A DNA stretch of 30,830 nucleotides from Candidatus Scatomorpha merdipullorum (GTDB lineage Bacteria; Bacillota; Clostridia; Oscillospirales; Oscillospiraceae), in assembly GCA_018716795.1 (NCBI GenBank), contig DVJK01000036.1, positions 1 through 30,830 on the forward strand, in the 5' to 3' direction. Within the stretch, counting starts at the first letter, position 1. Each line of letters starts with the position of its first letter. The notes beneath the pieces are model-generated. The model did not search any database. It saw only the letters and a program-made list of their open reading frames with translations, and was not told the DNA's origin. The translations under genes and the position numbers were made by a program. Positions 4,104-18,738 of the stretch are shown here, one piece after another.

Positions 4104-6389
4104 ATGTTCAGGATCGCGGAGAAATTCCCCCTAAACACGTCGAAGACTATCTTCAGAGTGAGCATCGAGGCTCCACTCGTCGCGCGCAGCGCCAGGCCGG
4201 GCCAGTTTGCCATCTTCAGGCTGGACGAGTACGGCGAGCGCTTCCCGCTGACCATCGCGGACTATGACCCGGAGAAGGGCACTGTCTCCTTCAACTTCCA
4301 GCCGGCGGGCAAGAGCACGTCCATGTTCTCGCTCATGGAGCCCGGCGACTACATCGCGGACATCGTCGGCCCCCTGGGCCGCCCGGCGGAGATCGACACG
4401 AACGCCAAGCGCATCTGCGTGGTTGGCGGCGGCACGGGCTGCGCCATCAACTACCCCGTGGCCAAGGAGCTCAAGCGCCTGGGCATCGGCGTGGACATGG
4501 TCTGCGGCTTCCGCAGCAAGGACATCGTCATAATGGAGGACGAGTTCCGCGCCGCCTGCGACAACCTCTATATCTGCACCGACGACGGCAGCTACGGCGA
4601 AAAGGGCTTCGTCACCGTCAAGCTCAAGGAGCTCATTGAGTCCGGCGTGCAGTACGACAGCGTCCTCACCTGCGGCCCTGTCATCATGATGAAGAACGTC
4701 GCCGAGGTCACCCGGCCCTACGGCATAAAGACCAACGCCAGCCTCAACCCGATAATGATAGACGGCACGGGCATGTGCGGCGGCTGCCGCCTCTCCGTCG
4801 CGGGCGAGCGGAAATTCGCCTGCGTCGACGGCCCCGAGTTCGACGCGCACCTCGTCGACTGGGACAGCCTGCTCGAGCGCAACAGCTTCTACACCGACGA
4901 GGAGGCCGAGGAGAACGAGCATATCTGCCGCATCACCGGCGGCGTCCGCCGCGGCGAGATAAAGCCCGTCAACCTCGCCGAGACGGAGGAGAACCCGGCC
5001 AAGCGCATGACCAAGCACCCCATGCCCGAGCAGGACCCCGTCATACGCGCCAAGAACTTCAACGAGGTCGCGCTGGGATACTCCGCCCAGGTCGCCCGCG
5101 ACGAGGCGGCGCGCTGCCTCGGCTGCAAGAACCCTCAGTGCGTCCAGGGCTGTCCCGTCAACGTCCGCATCCCCGAGTTCATCGCCCACGTCAAGGCCGG
5201 CGAGTATGAGGAGGCGTACAACGTCATCAACAGCACGAACTCCCTCGCCGCCGTCTGCGGCCGCGTCTGCCCGCAGGAGAAGCAGTGCGAGAGCAAGTGC
5301 GTCCGCGGCATAAAGGGCGAGCCCGTCGCGATTGGCCGCCTGGAGCGCTATGTCGCCGACTTCCACCTCGAGCATGGCGACACCCACGGCGCGGAGGCCC
5401 CGCGCAAGGCGCCGAGCAACGGACACAAGGTCGCGGTGATAGGCTCCGGCCCGAGCGGACTCACCTGCGCCGGCGACCTCGCCAAGAAGGGCTATGAGGT
5501 CACGGTCTTCGAGGCCCTGCACAAGTGCGGCGGCGTCCTGGCCTACGGCATCCCCGAGTTCCGTCTGCCCAAGGCGATTGTCGACCGCGAGGTCAAGAAC
5601 CTCGAGAGCTACGGCGTCAGGTTCGTCACCGACTGCATCATCGGCCGCACCATGCCGCTCGACCAGCTGTTTGCCGACGGCTTCGAGGCCGTGTTCATCG
5701 GCTCCGGCGCGGGCCTGCCGCAGTTTTTGAACATCCCGGGCGAGAACCTGCTCGGCGTCTACTCCGCCAACGAGTACCTCACCCGCATAAACCTCATGAA
5801 GGCCTATCGCGACGACTACGACACGCCGATAAAGTCCAACGCCAAGCGCATCGCCGTCGTCGGCGCGGGCAACGTGGCCATGGACGCCGCCCGCTGCGCC
5901 AAGCGCATGGGCGCAGAGGAGGTCTTCATCGTCTACCGCCGCGGCCGCGACGAGCTGCCCGCCCGCGCGGAGGAGGTCCACCACGCCGAGGAGGAGGGGA
6001 TAGAGTTCCGCCTGCTCAACAACCCGGTGGAGATTCTCGGCGACATCAACGGCAAGGTCGTCGGCCTCAAGTGCGTCCGCATGAAGCTCGGCGAGCCGGA
6101 CGCGAGCGGCCGCGCGAGCGTCACGCCCATAGAGGGCAGCGAGTTCGTCATGGTCGCCGACGCGGTCATAGTCGCGATAGGCACCACGCCCAACCCGCTC
6201 CTGCGCACCACCACTCCGGGCCTCGAGACCAACCGCAAGGGCTGCCTTGTGGTCAACGAGGACGCCATGACCTCCCGCAATGCCGTCTACGCCGGCGGCG
6301 ACGCCGTCACCGGCGCGGCCACCGTCATCCTCGCCATGGGCGCCGGCAAGAAGGGCGCCGAGAGCATAGATAAGTACCTTATGGGCTGA
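4104..6389 (+). CDS. nfnAB: Fused NfnA-NfnB (SudB-SudA) electron-bifurcating NADH-dependent ferredoxin:NADP+ oxidoreductase, 761 aa; often annotated PyrK-like/GltD fusion
   Basis: N-terminal half: PGQF..ERFPLTI, VGPLG, VGGGTG, CGP and DGTGMCGGCR..CVDGPEF (NfnA [2Fe-2S]). C-terminal half: EAARCLGC..CVQGCP, CGRVCPQEKQCE, IGSGPSG, VGAGNVAMD, YRR, GGDAVTGAATV (NfnB/GltD). Confidence 0.9.
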   Translation: MFRIAEKFPLNTSKTIFRVSIEAPLVARSARPGQFAIFRLDEYGERFPLTIADYDPEKGTVSFNFQPAGKSTSMFSLMEPGDYIADIVGPLGRPAEIDTNAKRICVVGGGTGCAINYPVAKELKRLGIGVDMVCGFRSKDIVIMEDEFRAACDNLYICTDDGSYGEKGFVTVKLKELIESGVQYDSVLTCGPVIMMKNVAEVTRPYGIKTNASLNPIMIDGTGMCGGCRLSVAGERKFACVDGPEFDAHLVDWDSLLERNSFYTDEEAEENEHICRITGGVRRGEIKPVNLAETEENPAKRMTKHPMPEQDPVIRAKNFNEVALGYSAQVARDEAARCLGCKNPQCVQGCPVNVRIPEFIAHVKAGEYEEAYNVINSTNSLAAVCGRVCPQEKQCESKCVRGIKGEPVAIGRLERYVADFHLEHGDTHGAEAPRKAPSNGHKVAVIGSGPSGLTCAGDLAKKGYEVTVFEALHKCGGVLAYGIPEFRLPKAIVDREVKNLESYGVRFVTDCIIGRTMPLDQLFADGFEAVFIGSGAGLPQFLNIPGENLLGVYSANEYLTRINLMKAYRDDYDTPIKSNAKRIAVVGAGNVAMDAARCAKRMGAEEVFIVYRRGRDELPARAEEVHHAEEEGIEFRLLNNPVEILGDINGKVVGLKCVRMKLGEPDASGRASVTPIEGSEFVMVADAVIVAIGTTPNPLLRTTTPGLETNRKGCLVVNEDAMTSRNAVYAGGDAVTGAATVILAMGAGKKGAESIDKYLMG

Positions 6390-9226: not shown

Positions 9227-10945
9227 TTACATTGAGCCTATGAGCTCGACTATAACCTTGCCGACGGCGTCGGCAAACTGGCTGATGTGGCGGATGCGGA
9301 CGAGCTCGCGGCCGTATATGCGGCGGGCGTTCGGAAGCTCCTCCTCCTCGCCGGTGAAGACGCACATGACGCTCACGCCCATGCGGCGGAGCTTTTCGAC
9401 CTCGGCGGAGGAGTCGGCGACGCCGGCCTCGCCCTGATAGTCCTTCTGGCGGCCCTGGGCGTCGGCGACCTTTTTGACGTCGTTCGGGCTGCAGTCGGAG
9501 AGGGTTATCAGTATCCTCCGCTCGTAGGGGCTGGAGGAGAGGAGATAGTTCGCGGCGCGCAGGGCCAGGCCGTCGCGGTTGAAGCCCGCGGCGGAGTATT
9601 CAAAAACGGCCTCGTTTTTCTCGGGCTCGTTGTAATCCCGGTAGATGCGCGTGACGGTGCAGCTGCCGACGCTGCAAAAGGACATGACGCGCACCGGCAG
9701 ACCGCAGCGCGTGAGGCTCTCGGCGAGGATATAGGCCTGGGAGGCCACCTTCTCCTGGCGCTGGAGCTGGCTGGCGGAGCCGTCGAGCAGCAGGTCGACG
9801 GAGAGCTCGGTGTCCGTCATGCGCTCGTGCTTTTCGAAGACGCTTCCGTCGTTCAAATAGACGCCGCGCCATATCCGGGCGGCGTTGAGCTCGCCCGCGC
9901 GGGACTTTATCATCGTGTCGTCGAGGTGGACGAGGATGCAGTTGCGCACCTTCTCCGTCAGGCGGATGATGGCCAGGCGGTGGGCGACGATGCCGTCGTT
10001 ATAATATTTCCGGTTGGCCTCGGCCTGGCTGCGCGAGGTCTGGCGCTGGAGCCGGACTTCGGCGTCGCGCGGTTCGGCGGAGAATTCGCCGCGCGTGAAG
10101 TGGAGCATACAGCCCGCGTGCCGGTCGCGGCAGAGGCGGTCTTCGATATTCGTGACGTCGCCGCGGCTGTACATGGACTCGCCGAAGCAGTCGGCGACAT
10201 AGCCGCGCAGCTGCTCGGGCGTCTTGTCGCCGGTGAGGCGGCCGATGGGGCTGAGCTTTCCGGCCTTGCGCCTGACCTCCTTCGAGCTCACGCGCGCGCC
10301 GAGGAAGTACCGCCGGCGGCCTATGCCGCCCATGAACTGCGGCAGCTTCGCAAGCGTGTCGTGCCGGAGCATGCCGCCGGTGACGCCGAAATAGTCCTTG
10401 AGTATGCCGCGCATTCGCTCGCAGAGCTGCTCGCTCGTGAGCTCGGGCGGGAACTCCAGCGCCTCGAGCAGCTTTTCCTCCCGGGGCGGGAGCCTGTGCC
10501 TCTCGCCCAGGACGCGGCGGTAGTGCTCGAGCTTTATGCGGTCGGCCATGGGCAGGTCGAGGTCGTTGAAGTCCGCGGCCTGGGCGACGACCGTGCGCGC
10601 ATAGCCCTGACGCAGCAATCGCAGGGCCGGCCGCTCCGCTATCGCGCGCTGATAGGCGCAGTTTTCAAGCCCCGTCCAGAAGAGGTCCTGCCAGGTCTCG
10701 CCCTGGGCGGCGTTCTCCATGCCGTCGAGCAGCTTCTTTATCGTGGGATAGTCGTAGTATTTATACACCGCGCCGACGATGCTGTTCATATACACGTCGG
10801 CATAGCCCTCCGGATCGTAGGCCCGGCTCTCGGGGTGGAGGCCGTAGTCCCCGGCGGCGTTCCAGATGAGGTTGGTGGCGCGGCGCTGCTGCCGCTCCTG
10901 CTCGACCTCGCTGAGCTCCTCATGAGCCCGTCTCAGGGCGCACAT
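9227..10945 (-). CDS. VWA-domain protein (NorD/CbbO/CobT-like partner of a MoxR ATPase), 572 aa
   Basis: C-terminal MIDAS LLLDGSAS, later NRDGLAL and LITLSDCSPND motifs. Starts 1 nt after the MoxR stop (TGA-G-ATG). Confidence 0.82.
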   Translation of the reverse strand: MCALRRAHEELSEVEQERQQRRATNLIWNAAGDYGLHPESRAYDPEGYADVYMNSIVGAVYKYYDYPTIKKLLDGMENAAQGETWQDLFWTGLENCAYQRAIAERPALRLLRQGYARTVVAQAADFNDLDLPMADRIKLEHYRRVLGERHRLPPREEKLLEALEFPPELTSEQLCERMRGILKDYFGVTGGMLRHDTLAKLPQFMGGIGRRRYFLGARVSSKEVRRKAGKLSPIGRLTGDKTPEQLRGYVADCFGESMYSRGDVTNIEDRLCRDRHAGCMLHFTRGEFSAEPRDAEVRLQRQTSRSQAEANRKYYNDGIVAHRLAIIRLTEKVRNCILVHLDDTMIKSRAGELNAARIWRGVYLNDGSVFEKHERMTDTELSVDLLLDGSASQLQRQEKVASQAYILAESLTRCGLPVRVMSFCSVGSCTVTRIYRDYNEPEKNEAVFEYSAAGFNRDGLALRAANYLLSSSPYERRILITLSDCSPNDVKKVADAQGRQKDYQGEAGVADSSAEVEKLRRMGVSVMCVFTGEEEELPNARRIYGRELVRIRHISQFADAVGKVIVELIGSM

Positions 10946-10946
10946 C

Positions 10947-11861
10947 TCAGCCGAAGAGGCCGCCGCGGCCCAGGTCGGCGGGGATGCGCGAGGTTATGAC
11001 GTCCTCGACCAGCTTGCGCTCGAAGGGATCGAAGGCCTTGTTGACCACGCCCATGCGCAGGCTGTCGACGGCCTTGAGGCCGCGCTCCATGAGGTCGACC
11101 GCGCTCATGAGGCCGCGCAGGTCGAGCGCCTTGGTCGAGATTTCCGCGCTGTCCACCTTGCGGCGGAGGTCGGAATAGAGCCCCGAGAACTGCTTTACCC
11201 ACTCGTCTTTGAGCGTGGGATGCTCGCGCTTCAAAAGCTTGGCGAGGTTTTCCTCGCTTATCGGCGGCATCTCGATGACGACGAAGCGGCTCACAAGCGC
11301 CTCGTTGAGCTCGCGCGTGCCGGCGTAGCCGTAGTTCATCGTGCCGATGAAGCGCGTCGCGCCGTCCATCTTAATGCGGTCGTATCCGGGCACGTCTATG
11401 ACGCGGCGGAAGTCCAGTGTGGCGTGCAGGACGGCCAGCGACTCGTTCTTCGCCATGTTTATCTCGTCGAGTATGCCGAAGCCGCCGAGCGTCGCGCACT
11501 GGGTTATCGGGCCGGGGCGGAAGCTGACCTCGCCGTTTTTGAAGGTGTCGGTGCCTATGAGCGAGGCGGCGTCGGTGTTTATATAAAAGCTGACGTCCCA
11601 GCTCGGGCGGCCGAAGGCCGCGGCCAGGTTCTCGGCCAGCACGTTCTTGCCTGTGGCCTTGGGGCCGACGAGCAGCAGGTTCTCTCCGCAGAGCAGGGCG
11701 GTGGCCGCCGCCTCCCAGATATCCCTGCCGTAGTAGTCGAAGCGCGGCTTGTCCAGAAGCCTGCGCCCGGCCTCCTCCGAGACGGGATGCTTCGCGCGGA
11801 ACTCCTCTATGGCGGATATTATGCCGGGATCTATGCCCTCCCGGCGCAGAAAGTCAAGCAT
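10947..11861 (-). CDS. MoxR-class AAA+ ATPase (CbbQ/NirQ/NorQ-like), 304 aa
   Basis: Walker A GPKATGKN, Walker B GILDEIN, FIGTMNYGYAGTRELNEALVSRF sensor/Arg-finger region. Confidence 0.9.
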   Translation of the reverse strand: MLDFLRREGIDPGIISAIEEFRAKHPVSEEAGRRLLDKPRFDYYGRDIWEAAATALLCGENLLLVGPKATGKNVLAENLAAAFGRPSWDVSFYINTDAASLIGTDTFKNGEVSFRPGPITQCATLGGFGILDEINMAKNESLAVLHATLDFRRVIDVPGYDRIKMDGATRFIGTMNYGYAGTRELNEALVSRFVVIEMPPISEENLAKLLKREHPTLKDEWVKQFSGLYSDLRRKVDSAEISTKALDLRGLMSAVDLMERGLKAVDSLRMGVVNKAFDPFERKLVEDVITSRIPADLGRGGLFG

Positions 11862-11988: not shown

Positions 11989-12025
11989 TTGACTATTCCG
12001 TCCGCATATGTTAAACTGTGAACGA
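11989..12025 (+). promoter_or_regulatory. Extended -10 sigma-A promoter for hypB-oxidoreductase-hypA with overlapping Rex-like box
   Basis: TTGACT-N17-TAAACT with TG at -15/-14. ATGTTAA-ACTG-TGAACGA (12008-12025) matches 11 of 14 Rex consensus positions and covers the -10. Confidence 0.6.
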
Positions 12026-12107: not shown

Positions 12108-12773
12108 ATGCTCAGGACGATAGAAATAAAGCAGAGCATCTTTGCTGACAACGACAGGGATGCGGACGCACTCCGCTCGGAGCTCAGGGAGAAAGGCGTC
12201 TTCCTGCTCAACCTGATGAGCTCGCCCGGCTCGGGCAAGACGACGACGCTGGTCAAGACCATCGCCGCGCTTCAAAACGAGCTGCGGATAGGGGTTATCG
12301 AGGCGGACATAGACTCCGACGTCGACGCGCACACGGTGCAGCGCGCCGGGGCCAAGGCCATTCAGCTGCACACGGGCGGCATGTGCCACCTGACGGCGGA
12401 CATGACCCGCCAGGGCGTGGAGGCCCTGGGCGTGGAGGACGTCGACCTCGCCATACTCGAAAACGTCGGCAACCTCGTCTGCCCGGCGGAGTTCGACACG
12501 GGCGCGGCCAAAAACGCGATGATACTCTCGGTGCCGGAGGGGCACGACAAGCCCCTGAAGTACCCGCTGATGTTCGAGGTCTGCGACGTCATGCTGATAA
12601 ACAAGATAGACGTCCTGCCCTACTTCGACTTCGACCTCGACAAGGTCCGCGAGTACGCCCTCAAGCGCAACCCGAAGCTCGAGCTCATACCCATAAGCGC
12701 CAAGACCGGCGAGGGCATAGACAAGTGGTGCGATTGGCTCCGCCGCGAGGTCAGGGCCTGGCAGAACAGGTGA
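12108..12773 (+). CDS. hypB: HypB nickel-insertion GTPase, 221 aa, lacking the His-rich/N-terminal CxxCGC extension
   Basis: SSPGSGKTT P-loop, VIEADI, GGMCHL metal site, ENVGNLVCPAEFD, LSVPEGHDKPLKYP, NKID. Confidence 0.95.
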   Translation: MLRTIEIKQSIFADNDRDADALRSELREKGVFLLNLMSSPGSGKTTTLVKTIAALQNELRIGVIEADIDSDVDAHTVQRAGAKAIQLHTGGMCHLTADMTRQGVEALGVEDVDLAILENVGNLVCPAEFDTGAAKNAMILSVPEGHDKPLKYPLMFEVCDVMLINKIDVLPYFDFDLDKVREYALKRNPKLELIPISAKTGEGIDKWCDWLRREVRAWQNR

Positions 12774-12817
12774 ACAAAGGCGAAAGCCGTTAAAAATCTA
12801 AGGAGGGGAGGCCAGAT

Positions 12818-15505
12818 ATGAGAGCATCAATCCTCAAGCTGGCGACAAAGATAAGCCTGGAGTGCGGCACCTATACGGGCGTCACTCCCAACGACCCCGA
12901 GTATAAGATACTCGACCCGGTCATAACCGACGAGATGGCGGAAATCGCCATGGGCCTCAAGGTGCGCAAGTACGTCTCCGCCGCCGAGGTGGCCAAGAAG
13001 GTCAAGAAGCCCCTCGCGCGCGTGAGCGAGGTGCTCTACGAGCTGACGAACATAGGCCTGTGCCGCGTGAGCCTCAAGGACGGGGAGGACAAGTTCTTCC
13101 TGCCGATATGGGTGCCGGGCATCATGGAGATGATGGTCGGCAACAAGGAGCAGGTGGAGCGCTATCCGGTCATAGCCGAGTGCTTCGAGGAGTATACCCG
13201 CCGGCGCATCGCCCCGCTCGCGCCCTTCGTGCCGGTCGGCCAGGGCATGATGCGCGTCATCCCCGTCGAGATGGCGATTCAGAACGACGCCCACCGCGGC
13301 ACCTACGAGGAGATACACGAGATAGTTGAAAACTCCTGGGCCATCGCGGTCACCGACTGCTCCTGCCGCAGGAGCCGCCGCCTCATGGGCGAGGGCTGCG
13401 GGCATCTGGAGAAGGACGTCTGCATCTTCTTCAACGAGGGCGCGGAGTATCACATCCGCACGGGCCACGGCCGCGAGATAGACAAGGCCGAGTGCTATGA
13501 AATTCTCAAGCGCTGCGAGGAAAACGGCCTCGTCCACGAGATTTCGAACCTCGACCCGCCCAACGGCGCGGCCGCGATATGCAACTGCTGCGGCTGCTCC
13601 TGCTTCTCGCTGCGCATAGCGGAGTATTTCAAGACTCCGGACGTCATTCGCTCCAACTACGTCGCCGAAGTCGACGCGAGCAAGTGCGTGGCCTGCGGCC
13701 TCTGCGTTGAAAACTGCAACCTCGGCGCGCTCAAGCTCGGCCAGAAGCTCTGCTCCGAGCCCAGCCGCGCCCCCGAGCACGACACCCCGCACGACAAGCT
13801 GCTCTGGTTCGGCCAGGACAAGTACGACCCCTACTACCGCACCAACCGCGGGTACACCGCCGAGGACGGCACCGCGCCCTGCAAGACCCGCTGTCCGGCG
13901 CACATCCCCGTCCAGGGCTACATAAAGCTCGCCAGCCTCGGCAGGTTCGACGAGGCGCTTGAGCTCATCCGGCGCGAGAACCCCTTCCCCGCGGTCTGCG
14001 GCCGCGTGTGCCCGCGCTTCTGCGAGGAGGCCTGCTCCCGCGGCGAGGTCGACGCGCCCGTGGCGATAGACGAGGTCAAGAAGTTCCTCGCCCAGCGCGA
14101 GCTCGACCCCGAGACCCGCAGCATCCCCAAGATGCTCAACATGACCGGCAAGCCCTTCACGAACAGGATAGCCGTCGTCGGCTCCGGCCCCGCCGGCCTG
14201 AGCTGCGCGTACTACCTCGCGCTCCAGGGCTATCCCGTCACCGTGTTCGAAAAGCAGAAGACCGTCGGCGGCCTGCTGATGAACGGCATCCCCAGCTACC
14301 GGCTGGAGAAGGACGTCGTCGCCGCCGAGATAGACATCCTGCGCGAGATAGGCGTCGAGTTCAAGACCGGAGTCGAGGTCGGCAAGGACGTCACGCTTGC
14401 CGAGCTGCGCAAGGAGGGCTACGAGGCCTTCTTCCTCGCGATAGGCGCGTGGAAGTCCTCCGCGCTGAACATCCCCGGCGAGAAGTACCGCGGCGTCATG
14501 AGCGGGCTTGACTTCCTGCGCCGGGCCGAGGGGCAGCGCCCGCCCGCCGTGGGCGAGGACACCGTCATTGTCGGCGGCGGCAACGTGGCGATAGACGCCG
14601 CGCGCACCGCGCTGCGCCTGGGCGCGAAGAACGTCACCGTCTGCTACCGCCGCGCGCGCGAGGACATGCCCGCCGACCCCGAGGAGGTCGCCGAGGCCGA
14701 GGCCGAGGGCGTCAAGTTCCGCTTCCTCGTCAGCCCGCTGCGCATAAAGGGCTCCGACGGCAGGGCCGCCGAACTTGAGCTGCAGCTCATGGCCCAGGGC
14801 GAGGCCGACGGAAGCGGCCGCCGCAAGGCCGTCGCGCTCGAGGGGCAGACCGAGACCATCCCCGCGTCCACCGTTATCTCCGCCATAGGCCAGCGCGTGG
14901 ACTGGGGCGAGCTGCTCGCCGGCTCGCGCGTGCAGCTGCGCCGCTCCGGCGCGGCCATGGCCGACCGCGTCACGCTCCAGACCATGGAGCCCGACATCTT
15001 CGTCGGCGGCGACGCGCTGACCGGCCCGAGCTTCGTCATTGACGCCATTGCCGAGGGCAAGGAGGCCGCGATTTCAATACACCGCTTCGTCCAGCCCGGC
15101 CAGAGCCTCACCATAGGCCGCCGCGTCAAGGACTACATGGAGCTCGACAAGTCCGACGCCGACCTCAGCGGCTATGACCGCGCGCCCAGGCAGCACGTCG
15201 CCGTCCCCGACCCCGAGAAGGCGAAGGAGACCTTCCGCGACCTGCGCGGCACATTCACCGCGGAGCAGGTCCTGAAGGAGACCGAGCGCTGCCTCGGCTG
15301 CGGCGCGACCGTCGTCGACCAGAGCGCCTGCGTGGGCTGCGGCGTCTGCACCACCAAGTGCAAGTTCGACGCGATACGCCTCGTGCGTGTGACCGACTCC
15401 GCCGGCAAGGTCTACGAAAAGCTCATGCCCGAGAGCGGCAAGAACGCCGTCCGCCGCGTCAAGGAGATTGCCGTCAAGCGCGTCTCGCGCCCCGGCACGA
15501 AGTGA
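12818..15505 (+). CDS. Multidomain Fe-S flavoprotein, 895 aa: N-terminal HTH-like and Cys/His-rich domain, ferredoxin, GltD/NfnB-like FAD/NAD(P)H module, C-terminal ferredoxin
   Basis: DCSC..GCGH..VC..GLVH..ICNCCGCSC; CVACGLCVENC; PCKTRCP..CGRVCPRFCEEAC; VGSGPAG; VGGGNVAIDAAR; YRR; GGDALTGP; RCLGCG..CVGCGVCTTKC. AGGAGG RBS. Confidence 0.9.
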   Translation: MRASILKLATKISLECGTYTGVTPNDPEYKILDPVITDEMAEIAMGLKVRKYVSAAEVAKKVKKPLARVSEVLYELTNIGLCRVSLKDGEDKFFLPIWVPGIMEMMVGNKEQVERYPVIAECFEEYTRRRIAPLAPFVPVGQGMMRVIPVEMAIQNDAHRGTYEEIHEIVENSWAIAVTDCSCRRSRRLMGEGCGHLEKDVCIFFNEGAEYHIRTGHGREIDKAECYEILKRCEENGLVHEISNLDPPNGAAAICNCCGCSCFSLRIAEYFKTPDVIRSNYVAEVDASKCVACGLCVENCNLGALKLGQKLCSEPSRAPEHDTPHDKLLWFGQDKYDPYYRTNRGYTAEDGTAPCKTRCPAHIPVQGYIKLASLGRFDEALELIRRENPFPAVCGRVCPRFCEEACSRGEVDAPVAIDEVKKFLAQRELDPETRSIPKMLNMTGKPFTNRIAVVGSGPAGLSCAYYLALQGYPVTVFEKQKTVGGLLMNGIPSYRLEKDVVAAEIDILREIGVEFKTGVEVGKDVTLAELRKEGYEAFFLAIGAWKSSALNIPGEKYRGVMSGLDFLRRAEGQRPPAVGEDTVIVGGGNVAIDAARTALRLGAKNVTVCYRRAREDMPADPEEVAEAEAEGVKFRFLVSPLRIKGSDGRAAELELQLMAQGEADGSGRRKAVALEGQTETIPASTVISAIGQRVDWGELLAGSRVQLRRSGAAMADRVTLQTMEPDIFVGGDALTGPSFVIDAIAEGKEAAISIHRFVQPGQSLTIGRRVKDYMELDKSDADLSGYDRAPRQHVAVPDPEKAKETFRDLRGTFTAEQVLKETERCLGCGATVVDQSACVGCGVCTTKCKFDAIRLVRVTDSAGKVYEKLMPESGKNAVRRVKEIAVKRVSRPGTK

Positions 15506-15506
15506 T

Positions 15507-15851
15507 ATGCACGAGATGAGCCTGGCCATACAGGCCATTCGGAGCGTCCTCGACTTTGCCGACGAGAACGGGATTGACGCCATAGACACCGTCGTGCTCG
15601 AGATAGGCGAGCTGAGCCTCGTCGTGCCCGAGTATATGGAGGAGGCCTGGAACGCCGCCTGCCGGAGCACGATGCTCGAGCGCGCCAGGCTGCGCATAGA
15701 CGTCACACCCGGCAACGGCCTGTGCCAGGGCTGCGGCAAGGTGTATAACATCGTGGAAAACCGCGGAACCTGCCCGTACTGCGGCAGCCGCGAAAAGGAA
15801 ATCCTCTGCGGCCGGGAGTTCAACATAAAGGAACTCCTCGTGCCCGAATAA
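15507..15851 (+). CDS. hypA: HypA nickel metallochaperone, 114 aa
   Basis: N-terminal MHE Ni-binding motif, LEIGELSLV, Zn finger CQGC..CPYC, GREFNI. Starts 1 nt after the oxidoreductase stop. Confidence 0.95.
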   Translation: MHEMSLAIQAIRSVLDFADENGIDAIDTVVLEIGELSLVVPEYMEEAWNAACRSTMLERARLRIDVTPGNGLCQGCGKVYNIVENRGTCPYCGSREKEILCGREFNIKELLVPE

Positions 15852-15860
15852 ACGAAAAAA

Positions 15861-15885
15861 GGCCGGCCCGTTTCGCGGGCCGGCC
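15861..15885. terminator. GC-rich hairpin after hypA, probable terminator
   Basis: GGCCGGCCCG-tttcg-CGGGCCGGCC preceded by an A-run. The plus-strand T-tract is weak. Confidence 0.5.
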
Positions 15886-15973: not shown

Positions 15974-16050
15974 GCGCCTTTAGCTCAGCTGGATAGAGCG
16001 TCTGGCTACGGACCAGAAGGTCAGGGGTTCGAATCCCTTAAGGCGTGCCA
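15974..16050 (+). tRNA. tRNA-Arg(ACG), 77 nt, CCA encoded
   Basis: Acceptor stem GCGCCTT/AAGGCGT, D-arm GCTC..GAGC, anticodon arm TCTGG-CTACGGA-CCAGA, T-arm AGGGG-TTCGAAT-CCCTT, discriminator G then CCA. Confidence 0.97.
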
Positions 16051-16077: not shown

Positions 16078-16440
16078 GTCAACAGGCACAGCCGAAAGGC
16101 TGTGCCTGTTGACATTCGTTCCGCTTCGTTTGTTCTTCCTTTCAAAACCGGACCCGCTATGCTGGGCTCCGGTTTTGTTTTTTATGGGATTCGGTTTGTT
16201 CCGACGTCTTTTTTTGCGAAGCAAAAAAAGGCCGTCATCCACTTCGTTACATCCGTTCCTCCTTTCAAAATTGAACCCGCTGCGCTGGGCTTCAATTTTG
16301 TGTTTGGATTGTGAAGTCCGCTCCGTTTGTTCTTCCTTTCAAAACCGGACCCGCTTCGCTGGGCTCCGGTTTTGTTTTATTTGGGGCTTGGTGCTTTCAA
16401 AGCGTGATTTAAAACCCGAAGCCTGGGCTTCGGGTTTTGC
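16078..16440. repeat. tRNA-downstream hairpin and direct-repeat cluster
   Basis: 16-bp perfect GAAA-capped stem at 16078-16113. Three copies of a ~60-bp unit ending in CTTTCAAAA-stem-CCCGCTNNGCTGGGC-stem-TTTTG (~16121, ~16245, ~16318) and a reduced copy at ~16411. Confidence 0.8.
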
Positions 16441-16448
16441 TTTTGGGC

Positions 16449-17435
16449 TTATTTGGCCAGCTCGTTTTTGCAGCGGCCGGTTTCTAGGAATTCGCGGAGG
16501 TTGTCGAAGGTGACGGAGTGGATGCCGCGGACGGCGGTGGCGGTGTAGAAGGCCGTGTGGGGCGTTATGAGGACGTTGTCGAGCGCGAGGAGGCCGGAGA
16601 TAACGGGATCCAACTCCTGCCCGGCGAGATTTTTGCGGATGAAGGACGTCTCGTTCGGGAAGACGTCCGCGGCGAGGCCGCCGAGCTTCCCGCTTCTGAG
16701 CGCCGCGAGCACGGCGGCGTAGTCGAAGAGCTCGCCCCGGGCGGCGTTGACGAGTATGGCCCCGTCGCGCATGGAGGCTATGCCCGCGGCGTTGACGACG
16801 TTCCTCGTCTCCTCCGTGAGGGCGCAGTGGAAGATTATCGCCTCGCTCTGCCGGAAGAGCTCCGCGCGGCTTACGTATTCGACGACGCCCTCGAGCTCCG
16901 GCCTGGGATGCGGGGTGTAGGCCAGGACGCGCGCGCCGAAGCCGCGGAGCAGCCGCGCCGTGCGGCTGCCTATGAAGCCCGTGCCGAAGACGCCGACGGT
17001 CATCTCGCCGAGCTCCCTCGCCGGCCGGCCCGGCAGGCCGAAATCCTGCGCGTCCGTGCGCCGCACCGAGCCCTTCACGTCCCGCAGCAGCGCGAGCAGC
17101 GACATGAGGGCGTACTCCGAGACGGCGTTCTGGCTGTACACCGGCACGTTCGCGCAGCGCAGGCCGTACTTGGCCGCGGCGGCGAGGTCGATGTGGTCCC
17201 AGCCGGTGCTGCGCGTTAGGACGTATTTGACGCCGGCGCCGCTCAGCGCGCGGGCGTTGGCCTCGTCTATGCGGCTGGCCGCGACAAGCGCGACGGCCTT
17301 TGAGCCGCGGGCGAGCGAGGCGGTCTCGGGCGTGAGCCGCCCGGAGCTTATGACGAGCTCGACGCCACGCTCCACCGCCATCTCGGCGAAGTCCCGGGCC
17401 TCGTCCTCGCGCATATCGTAGACAGTGAGCTTCAT
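16449..17435 (-). CDS. D-isomer-specific 2-hydroxyacid dehydrogenase (D-lactate dehydrogenase / VanH-like), 328 aa
   Basis: TRSTGWDHID, NVPVYSQNAVSE, GVFGTGFIG, VNAARGEL, ADVFPNE, LITPHTAFYT. Start reassigned to MKLTVY at 17435 behind a GGGAGG RBS. Confidence 0.9.
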   Translation of the reverse strand: MKLTVYDMREDEARDFAEMAVERGVELVISSGRLTPETASLARGSKAVALVAASRIDEANARALSGAGVKYVLTRSTGWDHIDLAAAAKYGLRCANVPVYSQNAVSEYALMSLLALLRDVKGSVRRTDAQDFGLPGRPARELGEMTVGVFGTGFIGSRTARLLRGFGARVLAYTPHPRPELEGVVEYVSRAELFRQSEAIIFHCALTEETRNVVNAAGIASMRDGAILVNAARGELFDYAAVLAALRSGKLGGLAADVFPNETSFIRKNLAGQELDPVISGLLALDNVLITPHTAFYTATAVRGIHSVTFDNLREFLETGRCKNELAK

Positions 17436-17465
17436 ATGAGTCCTCCCTTGCTTCCTTTTGCCCCT

Positions 17466-17494
17466 ATTGTAAGCCATCCGGCGCAAAACGGCAA
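17466..17494 (-). promoter_or_regulatory. sigma-A promoter for the D-2-hydroxyacid dehydrogenase gene
   Basis: TTGCCG-N17-TACAAT on the minus strand. Confidence 0.6.
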
Positions 17495-17495
17495 C

Positions 17496-17525
17496 AAAAA
17501 TCGCGCCGGGAGAGCTCCCGGCGCG
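17496..17525 (-). terminator. Intrinsic terminator of ktrB-ktrA-vanZ
   Basis: 10-bp stem CGCGCCGGGA / TCCCGGCGCG followed by ATTTTT on the minus strand. Confidence 0.7.
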
Positions 17526-17563
17526 CGGATATTGACGCGGAACGCAAAAACATCGCGGACTTT

Positions 17564-18091
17564 TTACCAGGTCATTTTCTCGTCCAGCGCCCTCAGCTTC
17601 GGCCTCGCGAGAAGGAAGAGGACATAGCCCAGGAGGCCGCCGAGGGTGTTCATGATGAGGTCGGTGACGTCGAAGATGCGCCGGTTCGAGACGCCGCCCC
17701 AGCAGTACAGCAGCTGCACGCCCTCGATAAAGAGGCTCAGGCCGAGGGAGGCGAGCGTGACGCGGACGGGGCCGCGCCTTCTGATGCAGGGCAGGATGAA
17801 GCCGAAGGGCAGGAACATGAGGCAGTTCAAAACCACGCCGCTGCGCGCGTAGAGATAGCCGCGCTTTATGTCCCGGAAGGGCTCGAGGTTTATCTCCTCG
17901 AGGAAGAGCCGGTTCGCGCCGGGTATGGGCAGGCGGAAGGGCATCAGCGTGACGCAGGCCACGGCGCAGAGATAGAGCCAGAGCAGCGTGAACCAGACCC
18001 TGTACCGCTGCTCGCGCCGCCGGAGCCGGAGCGCCCAGACGGCGGCGTATGCGAGCGCGAGCAGGCCGAAATCGAGCAGCAGCTCGGCCAT
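17564..18091 (-). CDS. VanZ-like family membrane protein, 175 aa
   Basis: INLEPF..LNCLMFLPFG..SLFIEGVQ..RIFDVTDLIMNTLGG VanZ signature with several TM segments. TGATG overlap with ktrA. Confidence 0.85.
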   Translation of the reverse strand: MAELLLDFGLLALAYAAVWALRLRRREQRYRVWFTLLWLYLCAVACVTLMPFRLPIPGANRLFLEEINLEPFRDIKRGYLYARSGVVLNCLMFLPFGFILPCIRRRGPVRVTLASLGLSLFIEGVQLLYCWGGVSNRRIFDVTDLIMNTLGGLLGYVLFLLARPKLRALDEKMTW

Positions 18092-18738
18092 CAGGCGGTG
18101 ACGCGGCGCACGTCGTCCATGCTGCCGAGGACGAGGATGTGCTCCGCCTCGTTGAACTTGTAGCCCGGATCGACCACGGGCCGCATCCTCTCGTCGTCCC
18201 CGCGGGCGGCGATGAGGTTGAGGTTATAGCGGTTGCGAAGGCCGACCTCGGCCACGGAGCGGCCCATCCACTCGCGCGGCGGCTCAATCTCGCATATCGC
18301 GCAGCCCTCGGCCAGGGCGATGAAGTCGAAGATGTGCTCGCTCGACTCGCGCACGGCGATGCGCTCGGCGGCGTCGCGCTCGGGGTAGATGATATAGTCG
18401 GCGCCGCAGCGGCGCAGGAATTTGGCCTCGAGGTCGCGGTCGGCCTTGGAGTATACGCGCTTCGCGCCCAGCTCCTTGAGCTGGTCGGTTATCTCGAGGC
18501 AGGCCTGGAAGGCCTGGTTGACGCAGACGAAGCAGGCGTCGAAGCTTGCGACGTCGAAGCTCTTGAGCACGTCGATGTTCGTGCAGTCGGCCACCTTGGC
18601 CTCCGTGACGTAGGGGAGCATGTCCTCCACGGCCTCGGAGTTCTGGTCGACTATCATAATCTCGCACTTGTTGCGGCAGAGCGCCTCGCAGAGGTGGTGC
18701 CCGAAGGTGCCCATGCCGATGATAAGGAAGGACTTCAT
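18091..18738 (-). CDS. ktrA: Trk/Ktr potassium uptake regulatory subunit (KtrA/TrkA), 215 aa
   Basis: LIIGMGTFG Rossmann (RCK_N) motif, LKELGAKRVYSKA, GADYIIYPE, C-terminal RCK_C domain. Confidence 0.9.
   Translation of the reverse strand: MKSFLIIGMGTFGHHLCEALCRNKCEIMIVDQNSEAVEDMLPYVTEAKVADCTNIDVLKSFDVASFDACFVCVNQAFQACLEITDQLKELGAKRVYSKADRDLEAKFLRRCGADYIIYPERDAAERIAVRESSEHIFDFIALAEGCAICEIEPPREWMGRSVAEVGLRNRYNLNLIAARGDDERMRPVVDPGYKFNEAEHILVLGSMDDVRRVTA

Follow-up and report, generated by a model that had tools for sequence, protein, structure and literature searches.

We examined a window of 30,830 nt (positions 1 to 30,830 of contig DVJK01000036.1, assembly GCA_018716795.1) from Candidatus Scatomorpha merdipullorum, a member of the Oscillospiraceae, in which three co-oriented genes encode the nickel chaperone HypB, an 895-aa iron-sulfur (Fe-S) flavoprotein, here called P0002, and the nickel chaperone HypA. 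The window is contig C212 of a 1.78-Mb metagenome-assembled genome (MAG), which comprises 266 contigs and is 79% complete. The hypB gene (221 aa) lies at 12108..12773 on the plus strand and is followed after 44 nt by the flavoprotein gene (12818..15505, +), and hypA (114 aa; 15507..15851, +) starts 1 nt past the stop codon of the flavoprotein gene. These spacings, read from the open reading frame (ORF) list and the translations, agree with the three-gene layout described in an earlier note on this DNA. The start of hypA was placed at the ATG at 15507, where the conserved MHE sequence begins; a longer ORF with a TTG start at 15468 overlaps the preceding gene. The note had also proposed one upstream promoter and a hairpin at the end. 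A promoter-like sequence, TTGACT-17-TAAACT with an extended TG, is located about 90 nt upstream of hypB (11989..12017, +); it is a consensus match only, and three promoter-like sites were found where 0.7 were expected in shuffled sequences. A perfect 10-bp GC hairpin is present 3' of hypA (15861..15885, without assigned strand), but it carries a T-run solely on its minus-strand side and the plus strand continues with GCTTCGC, so that it is no textbook terminator for the three genes. We suggest, at a probability of roughly 60%, that hypB, the flavoprotein gene and hypA form one operon that encodes a reductase of the IsrA family ('clade 9') together with its own maturation chaperones.

Both chaperones retain their metal-binding motifs, as the earlier note had stated. 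HypB scores 247.6 bits against TIGR00073 (cut-off 121.2), matches PF02492, and contains the motifs of a G3E GTPase together with the Cys-His...Cys metal site; we read from the sequence the P-loop GSGKTT, the MCH and VCP metal ligands (C93-H94 and C125) and NKID. HypA scores 104 bits against PF01155 and 86.5 bits against TIGR00100, slightly below the cut-off of 88.1. Its M1-H2-E3 sequence corresponds to the N-terminal M-H-E motif that forms the Ni site of characterised HypAs, and its Zn knuckles are C73xxC76 and C89xxC92 (numbered from the MHE start). Across 22 flavoprotein-linked HypA orthologues, neither M1-H2-E3 nor any of the four Zn cysteines varies. In hydrogenase maturation, Ni passes from HypB to HypA upon GTP hydrolysis.

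The flavoprotein contains a module for NAD(P)H and flavin adenine dinucleotide (FAD), two core [4Fe-4S] sites and two further ferredoxin-type motifs. The GltD/NfnB-like core at residues 346-760 (13853..15097, +) is composed of Fer4_20 (PF14691, 79.5 bits) and Pyr_redox_2 (PF07992, 106.3 bits). The first additional motif, C290xxC293xxC296xxxC300 ... C312 (13667..13753, +), is supported by Pfam, with a Fer4-type motif at residues 284-301, and by the homologue alignment, and the second, C825xxC828 ... C838xxC841xxC844xxxC848 (15290..15388, +), by a Pfam Fer4 match at about 832-854. P0002 reaches the curated cut-off of no named NCBIfam equivalog, the best being PRK12771 (465.7 against 516), followed by gltA (334.6 against 471.75) and gltD (319.3 against 482.95). 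When compared with NfnB, GltD and domain II of dihydropyrimidine dehydrogenase, P0002 adds about 345 N-terminal and 130 C-terminal residues with three more cluster sites, and it differs from NfnB and GltD also in scoring below the cut-offs for the named members and in having no NfnA or GltB partner gene. Its core is nevertheless 37% identical to an NfnAB-like paralogue in the same window. That paralogue, a fused NfnA/NfnB-like protein of 761 aa (4104-6389, +), consists of a DHODB Fe-S domain, Fer4_20 and Pyr_redox_2, and, as an ordinary paralogue, lacks the Cys-rich module described below.

In the N-terminal part of P0002, residues 1-283 match no Pfam family above threshold. Residues 1-130 (12818..13207, +) were modelled by AlphaFold2 as a winged-helix-like domain with predicted local distance difference test (pLDDT) values of 75-97, and they gave weak Pfam matches to TrmB/DUF7342. 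When this domain was compared with the Protein Data Bank (PDB; Foldseek, VIA-align wide), solely winged-helix regulators were retrieved, at E values of at least 5e-3 and Z scores of at most 7.1. The Cys-rich module at residues 157-262 (13286..13603, +), supported by invariance and by hhalign, is our candidate for the metal (Ni) acceptor or for the catalytic site. It comprises C181-x-C183, C194-G-H196, C202, H240 and C255-N-C257-C258-G-C260-S-C262, and in 20 homologues, whose N-terminal region is highly conserved, C181, C183, C194, H196, C202, H240, C255, C257, C258, C260 and C262 are all invariant and are followed by C290xxC293xxC296xxxC300. The nine-cysteine module lies outside every Pfam family. 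The AlphaFold2 model of the N-terminal 350 residues has a mean pLDDT of 66 and is poor beyond residue 259. For the Cys-rich core, no solved-fold match was obtained with Foldseek against the PDB and VIA-align wide, and a search of the ESM Atlas with residues 140-320 returned only fragments of the flavoprotein's own family.

An enzyme with this architecture has been described. Kronen et al. (2023, mSystems; PMC10134865) reported IsrA (VUZ27132.1) from Acetobacterium wieringae ISORED-2 / strain Y as a putative isoprene reductase; it is a protein of 901 aa with an unannotated N-terminus containing CxC at Cys180/182 and Cys254/256, Fer4 at 289-300, Fer4_20 with FAD/NAD(P)H domains, and a C-terminal Fer4. 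The operon has the order isrA-hypA-hypB-ferredoxin-hypA, and the first ~270 residues of its 'ferredoxin' align with the first ~270 of IsrA; it is present in A. wieringae without hydrogenase or hypCDEF. Their proteomic analysis showed that isoprene induces the operon proteins and that IsrA is the only induced redox protein. Among 988 'clade 9' homologues, the frequencies of neighbours within five genes were 0.73 for HypA, 0.56 for HypB, 0.4 for DUF5692 and 0.21 for TetR. The same authors proposed Ni insertion at a Cys6 site, 'cluster V', beside the predicted substrate tunnel, and likened this site to P-type/double-cubane clusters and to the A-cluster of acetyl-CoA synthase (ACS). The homologues from non-isoprene-reducing Acetobacterium are only 47-49% identical to IsrA. 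In a 2026 preprint on an isoprene-reducing Pelotomaculum, hypA was up 373-fold and hypB 585-fold. The earlier note had presented the system as a candidate new one and had left the literature to be checked; the family, its HypA/HypB neighbourhood and the Ni hypothesis were in fact published in 2023 (PMC10134865), and biochemical work has still not been found.

P0002 resembles IsrA in its length of about 900 aa and in the order of its parts: an unannotated N-terminal region of ~270-300 aa, Fer4, Fer4_20, Pyr_redox_2 and a C-terminal Fer4. C181/C183 and C255/C257 match IsrA Cys180/182 and Cys254/256, and with the extra C194, C202, C258, C260 and C262 the Cys-rich module is the counterpart of 'cluster V'. 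Both systems have adjacent hypA and hypB genes and a similar taxonomic spread, and both genomes also hold a short 'ferredoxin' that repeats the N-terminal module. Of the other neighbours reported for 'clade 9', DUF5692 is seen beside a relative of P0002, and TetR at a second, short-module locus of this MAG and at its relatives. There are also differences. Here the enzyme gene stands between the two chaperone genes (hypB-enzyme-hypA), the short module protein has a locus, a hypA and a hypB of its own elsewhere in the genome, and the host, a chicken-gut-type Oscillospiraceae MAG, possesses a [NiFe]-hydrogenase as well; there is no reason to assume that isoprene is the substrate here. Taken together, P0002 is very probably an IsrA-family enzyme with dedicated chaperones.

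Full-length homologues with 56-98% identity over about 895 aa were found in Candidatus Scatomorpha, other Oscillospiraceae, Clostridium and Spirochaetes, and a pattern scan of GTDB species representatives gave at least 588 relatives of the N-terminal domain. Synteny was counted at the 80 best homologue loci, in which HypA was detected by tblastn and hidden Markov model searches. These loci come from Oscillospiraceae, Clostridium, Mogibacterium, Thermodesulfobacteriota, Anaerolinea and the isolate Metaclostridioides mangenotii. HypA is present in 61/80 of them, nearly always directly downstream of the flavoprotein gene or divergent upstream of it, and in the majority of the loci where HypA is missing a contig end truncates the locus. 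An upstream HypB is found in the Scatomorpha clade, in L073, L075, L078 and L082, and in members from Thermodesulfobacteriota, Anaerolinea, Bacillota and M. mangenotii; in L051 it lies downstream of hypA. The transporters that adjoin homologues are varied (MFS, SSF, LysE and DUF5692). Since DUF5692 (468.6 bits) stands beside the M. mangenotii homologue, these loci and those of Kronen et al. belong to the same family; the window itself contains neither DUF5692 nor TetR.

The MAG contains a second HypA/HypB locus, which lacks the flavoprotein. On contig C3 (L002 1-7563, continuing into L003/C214) we found, in order, TetR, hypA, a 290-aa protein, an MFS transporter, a 277-aa protein, an unknown ORF, a CooC/MinD-like ATPase and hypB. 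The partial hypB pieces on contigs C3 and C214 overlap by 211 nt (L002 1-211 / L003 1-211) with 96% identity and therefore represent one gene, and the break inside it resembles one left in the assembly by strain heterogeneity. Residues 145-312 of the flavoprotein have a homologue in the 290-aa protein (hhalign 98.5%, E 2.4e-15), with nine cysteines aligned; profile comparison was needed to detect this homology, as the BLASTP alignment between the N-domain of P0002 and the 290-aa protein was limited to the ferredoxin motif. The 277-aa protein is a more distant copy of the module with HCGCRR...GC and CFCFC motifs (hhalign 90.9%). One copy of the module is thus fused to the window flavoprotein and two are short Fe-S proteins at the second locus, and both loci have their own HypA lineage and HypB. 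Oscillospiraceae conserve the second locus, and Smithella and Syntrophomonadaceae do so in part; relatives with at least 37% identity and an adjoining HypA occur in Smithella, Syntrophomonadaceae, Bacteroidales and Limnocylindrales. HypA was seen at 22/80 short-family loci, and this partial association is a small extension of the published picture, since no HypA/HypB association was reported for the IsrA-type ferredoxin (PMC10134865).

The comparison of the two loci points to the Cys-rich module as the common feature of the HypA-linked proteins and thus as the likely metal acceptor. Beyond this, we tentatively propose, at somewhat less than even odds, that the nine-cysteine module (CxC...C...GC(x)H...CxCCxCxC plus the ferredoxin motif) is an autonomous Ni-accepting domain that would hold a new Ni-Fe-S cofactor, that this genome encodes three such domains, and that IsrA-like and short proteins may constitute a tenth class of nickel enzymes, which would reduce unactivated C=C bonds.

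In the mechanism we propose, HypB would load Ni(II) and hand it to HypA upon GTP hydrolysis, and HypA would place it in the apo-flavoprotein's Cys-rich module, which would become a Ni-containing Fe-S site. Electrons would then flow from NAD(P)H through FAD and four [4Fe-4S] clusters to the Ni-Fe-S site, where the C=C bond of a small, probably unactivated or conjugated substrate would be reduced. The C=C substrate is suggested by analogy with the conversion of isoprene to methylbutene in A. wieringae. That nickel is actually inserted into the flavoprotein is somewhat more probable than not. The proposed site recalls the ACS A-cluster and the C-cluster of carbon monoxide dehydrogenase (CODH) in the idea that clustered cysteines, among them a Cys-Gly-Cys triplet (C258-G259-C260 in P0002), attach Ni to a [4Fe-4S] cluster. 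The Ni-Fe-S sites of ACS and CODH are matured by CooC/AcsF-type ATPases, and the second locus encodes a CooC-like ATPase. On the other hand, no sequence or fold similarity between P0002 and these enzymes was detected, and the Gly of C-G-C is unconserved in the short-module family.

The chaperones could instead serve the flavoprotein without any catalytic Ni, by supplying another metal such as Zn or by assembling or stabilising an all-iron nine-cysteine cluster of the double-cubane or P-cluster-like type. In favour of this explanation, the Cys6 site resembles P-type/double-cubane clusters as well as the ACS A-cluster (PMC10134865). Most of the distant short-module members have no HypA nearby but keep all their cysteines. 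Zn is also bound by HypB-type GTPases and by HypA. Nevertheless, the M-H-E motif for Ni does not vary among the flavoprotein-linked HypAs and HypB keeps its Cys-His Ni/Zn site, and we know of no non-Ni client for HypA/HypB; we therefore regard this explanation as unlikely.

The window contains no hydrogenase, hypCDEF, urease or CODH gene, in agreement with the earlier note for the first three. Its description of the chaperones as 'orphan', however, holds for the window only, as the genome carries hypFCDE and a hydrogenase on two other contigs. Contig C92 has hypF-hypC-hypD, and contig C144 has hypD-hypE, a Complex1_30kDa subunit, the [NiFe] large subunit, hypA and Mrp/Nuo-like membrane subunits; the combined order ends with hypA, MnhE and other Mrp/Nuo-like membrane subunits, the small subunit and a ferredoxin. 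The large subunit (360 aa) contains RVCGICSHSH and a C-terminal DPCFSCLDR, and this cluster encodes an intact group-4, Mbh-type [NiFe]-hydrogenase. It has its own hypA directly 3' of the large subunit and no hypB. The MAG as a whole holds three hypA and two hypB genes by tblastn, and for its hypB the hydrogenase cluster must depend on one of the two other loci or on the 20% of the genome that is unassembled. Since it has none of its own, the hypB of the window or that of C3/C214 probably serves the hydrogenase too. The wider search for nickel enzymes suggested in the earlier note gave the [NiFe] large subunit and hypFCDE, and in the assembled part of the MAG it gave no match to Prismane (CODH), no urease and solely a sub-threshold match to LarA. 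CODH and urease were considered as clients and rejected: among the HypD-less carriers described below, true CooS occurs in 2/11 and 3/9, and urease yielded two marginal 40-residue matches in 20 genomes.

With a hydrogenase in the genome, hypB and hypA could simply be the ordinary maturation genes of this group-4 enzyme, P0002 being a bystander or redox partner that contains only Fe-S clusters and FAD. An intact hydrogenase with hypFCDE and hypA that lacks hypB, in a MAG with only two assembled hypB genes, speaks for this explanation, and HypD is also found in 39/50 genomes that bear a flavoprotein homologue. Yet the hydrogenase already possesses a hypA beside its large subunit, and the operon of A. 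wieringae occurs without hydrogenase or hypCDEF (PMC10134865). The client encoded here resembles [NiFe]-hydrogenase (and Helicobacter urease) in having chaperones with the same Ni-binding motifs and a gene translationally coupled to hypA, but it is neither enzyme, has no RxCGxC or DPCxxC motif and implies no requirement for HypCDEF; unlike those of a canonical hyp operon, the hypA and hypB of the window adjoin neither hypCDEF nor hydrogenase genes, which lie on C92 and C144.

The distribution of the genes speaks further against this explanation. HypA is encoded in 50/50 homologue-bearing genomes (1-5 copies) and true HypB in 47/50, while HypD is absent from 11/50. All 11 HypD-less genomes lack PF00374, the NiFe large subunit, and all have true HypB; in seven of them HypA is present in 3-5 copies. 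In M. mangenotii, the only HypA and the only true HypB are the two that flank the flavoprotein. For an unbiased test, we turned to an even sample of 199 Clostridia genomes with at least 90% completeness. A full-length homologue was present in 13/199, HypA was on the same contig within about 3 kb in 13/13, and HypD was absent in 9/13, from six families. Conversely, all nine genomes of the sample with canonical HypA and without HypD carry a flavoprotein homologue, and the six others with HypA and without HypD come from a single family whose HypA-like protein is divergent. The pair therefore persists without HypD or NiFe hydrogenase in 11/50 and 9/13 genomes, so that, on the point by which the earlier note would have abandoned its claim, a hydrogenase does not accompany the genes in every genome. 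None of the nickel systems tested (NiFe large subunit, HypD, CODH, urease and LarA) is present in three carriers of 99-100% completeness, G187, G058 and G105. The pairing of flavoprotein and HypA is co-inherited across phyla independently of [NiFe]-hydrogenase. As a separate observation, the family with the divergent HypA-like protein (f30; G077, G111, G141, G194, G220 and G245) has it in six of seven sampled genomes, with 58-68 bits and a profile match only from position 6-7, and has no HypD and no IsrA-like gene.

We also constructed a HypA tree from 106 sequences, of which 62 are flavoprotein-linked, 23 short-module-linked and 21 adjoin HypD. Each class is confined to one side of a branch, with support of 100 and 87 in the Shimodaira-Hasegawa-like approximate likelihood-ratio test (SH-aLRT), and the branch with the flavoprotein-linked HypAs on one side has an SH-aLRT of 100; these HypAs group apart from the hydrogenase-linked ones. 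The labels change twice on the tree compared with 39.5 changes in shuffles, values that come from a 114-column alignment, a quick search and related genomes that are not independent. HypA paralogues thus sort by client, and we consider it quite improbable that hypB and hypA of the window are merely hydrogenase maturation genes. The reading that the chaperones of the trio serve the sandwiched flavoprotein rather than the hydrogenase is well supported by these comparative data. The earlier note had inferred that the flavoprotein is the Ni client; synteny, persistence in HypD-less genomes and the separate HypA lineage bear out the client relationship, while Ni dependence itself is an inference.

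A last explanation, in which the winged helix and the Cys-rich module form a redox- or metal-sensing regulatory domain and the protein is a sensor, not a reductase acting on an external substrate, draws on the modelled similarity of residues 1-130 to MarR/ArsR/TrmB regulators. It is very improbable, because this similarity (Z at most 7.1) is of the order shown by common arrangements, the same protein joins to the domain a whole NAD(P)H/FAD/multi-cluster electron chain, the varied transporters beside homologues suggest small-molecule substrates, and the A. wieringae homologue is the sole redox protein induced during isoprene reduction (PMC10134865).

Several points weigh against an IsrA-family reductase with its own Ni chaperones. 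First, the hydrogenase cluster without hypB gives the window hypB another plausible client. Second, some nine homologue loci that are not truncated lack a nearby HypA, HypA being encoded elsewhere in those genomes. Third, 58/80 short-family loci lack HypA and distant members keep all cysteines, so that the Cys-rich module can probably exist without a neighbouring Ni chaperone, which calls for caution in regarding it as the metal acceptor. Fourth, the Cys-rich part was modelled by AlphaFold2 with medium to low confidence only. Fifth, the assignment of P0002 to the IsrA family is based on the published features and the neighbourhood signature. Finally, our literature search found no purification, metal analysis or biochemistry for any IsrA-like protein.

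Some neighbouring features were recorded for context. Divergent from hypB are a MoxR-type AAA+ gene (AAA_5; 10947-11861, -) and its VWA/CobT_C-like partner (9227-10945, -), a pair (9227-11861) that resembles CobS/CobT-type metal-insertion pairs. It stands beside the trio in 12/80 loci, all of the close Scatomorpha clade (among L007-L031), and was rejected as a part of the system since this restriction marks it as lineage-specific context. Directly beyond the hairpin that follows hypA lies a tRNA-Arg(ACG) gene (15974-16050). An identical terminator-like hairpin, GCTGGGCTCCGGT, followed by a T-run, occurs twice, at 16161-16173 and 16358-16370, 197 nt apart. In a 612-aa ORF (16449-18287, -), D-2-hydroxyacid dehydrogenase domains are confined to residues ~299-610; the N-terminal ~290 residues have no Pfam match, and the true start may be later or the ORF may be a fusion.

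The locus brings no new concept, as the Ni hypothesis was published in 2023 (PMC10134865). What is added here is that a genome with the module also has a true [NiFe]-hydrogenase, whose hypA is a separate one, and that a second HypA/HypB locus around the isolated Cys-rich module narrows the search for the metal site. If the proposal is true, a HypA/HypB-matured flavin/Fe-S reductase without HypCDEF would be a new class of nickel enzyme, of which, to our knowledge, only nine or so are known. It could account for the anaerobic hydrogenation of isoprene, dienes and other unactivated alkenes, perhaps including dietary lipids or terpenes, and, if the module does define a tenth class, that class would be widespread in anaerobes of the gut, the rumen and sediments.

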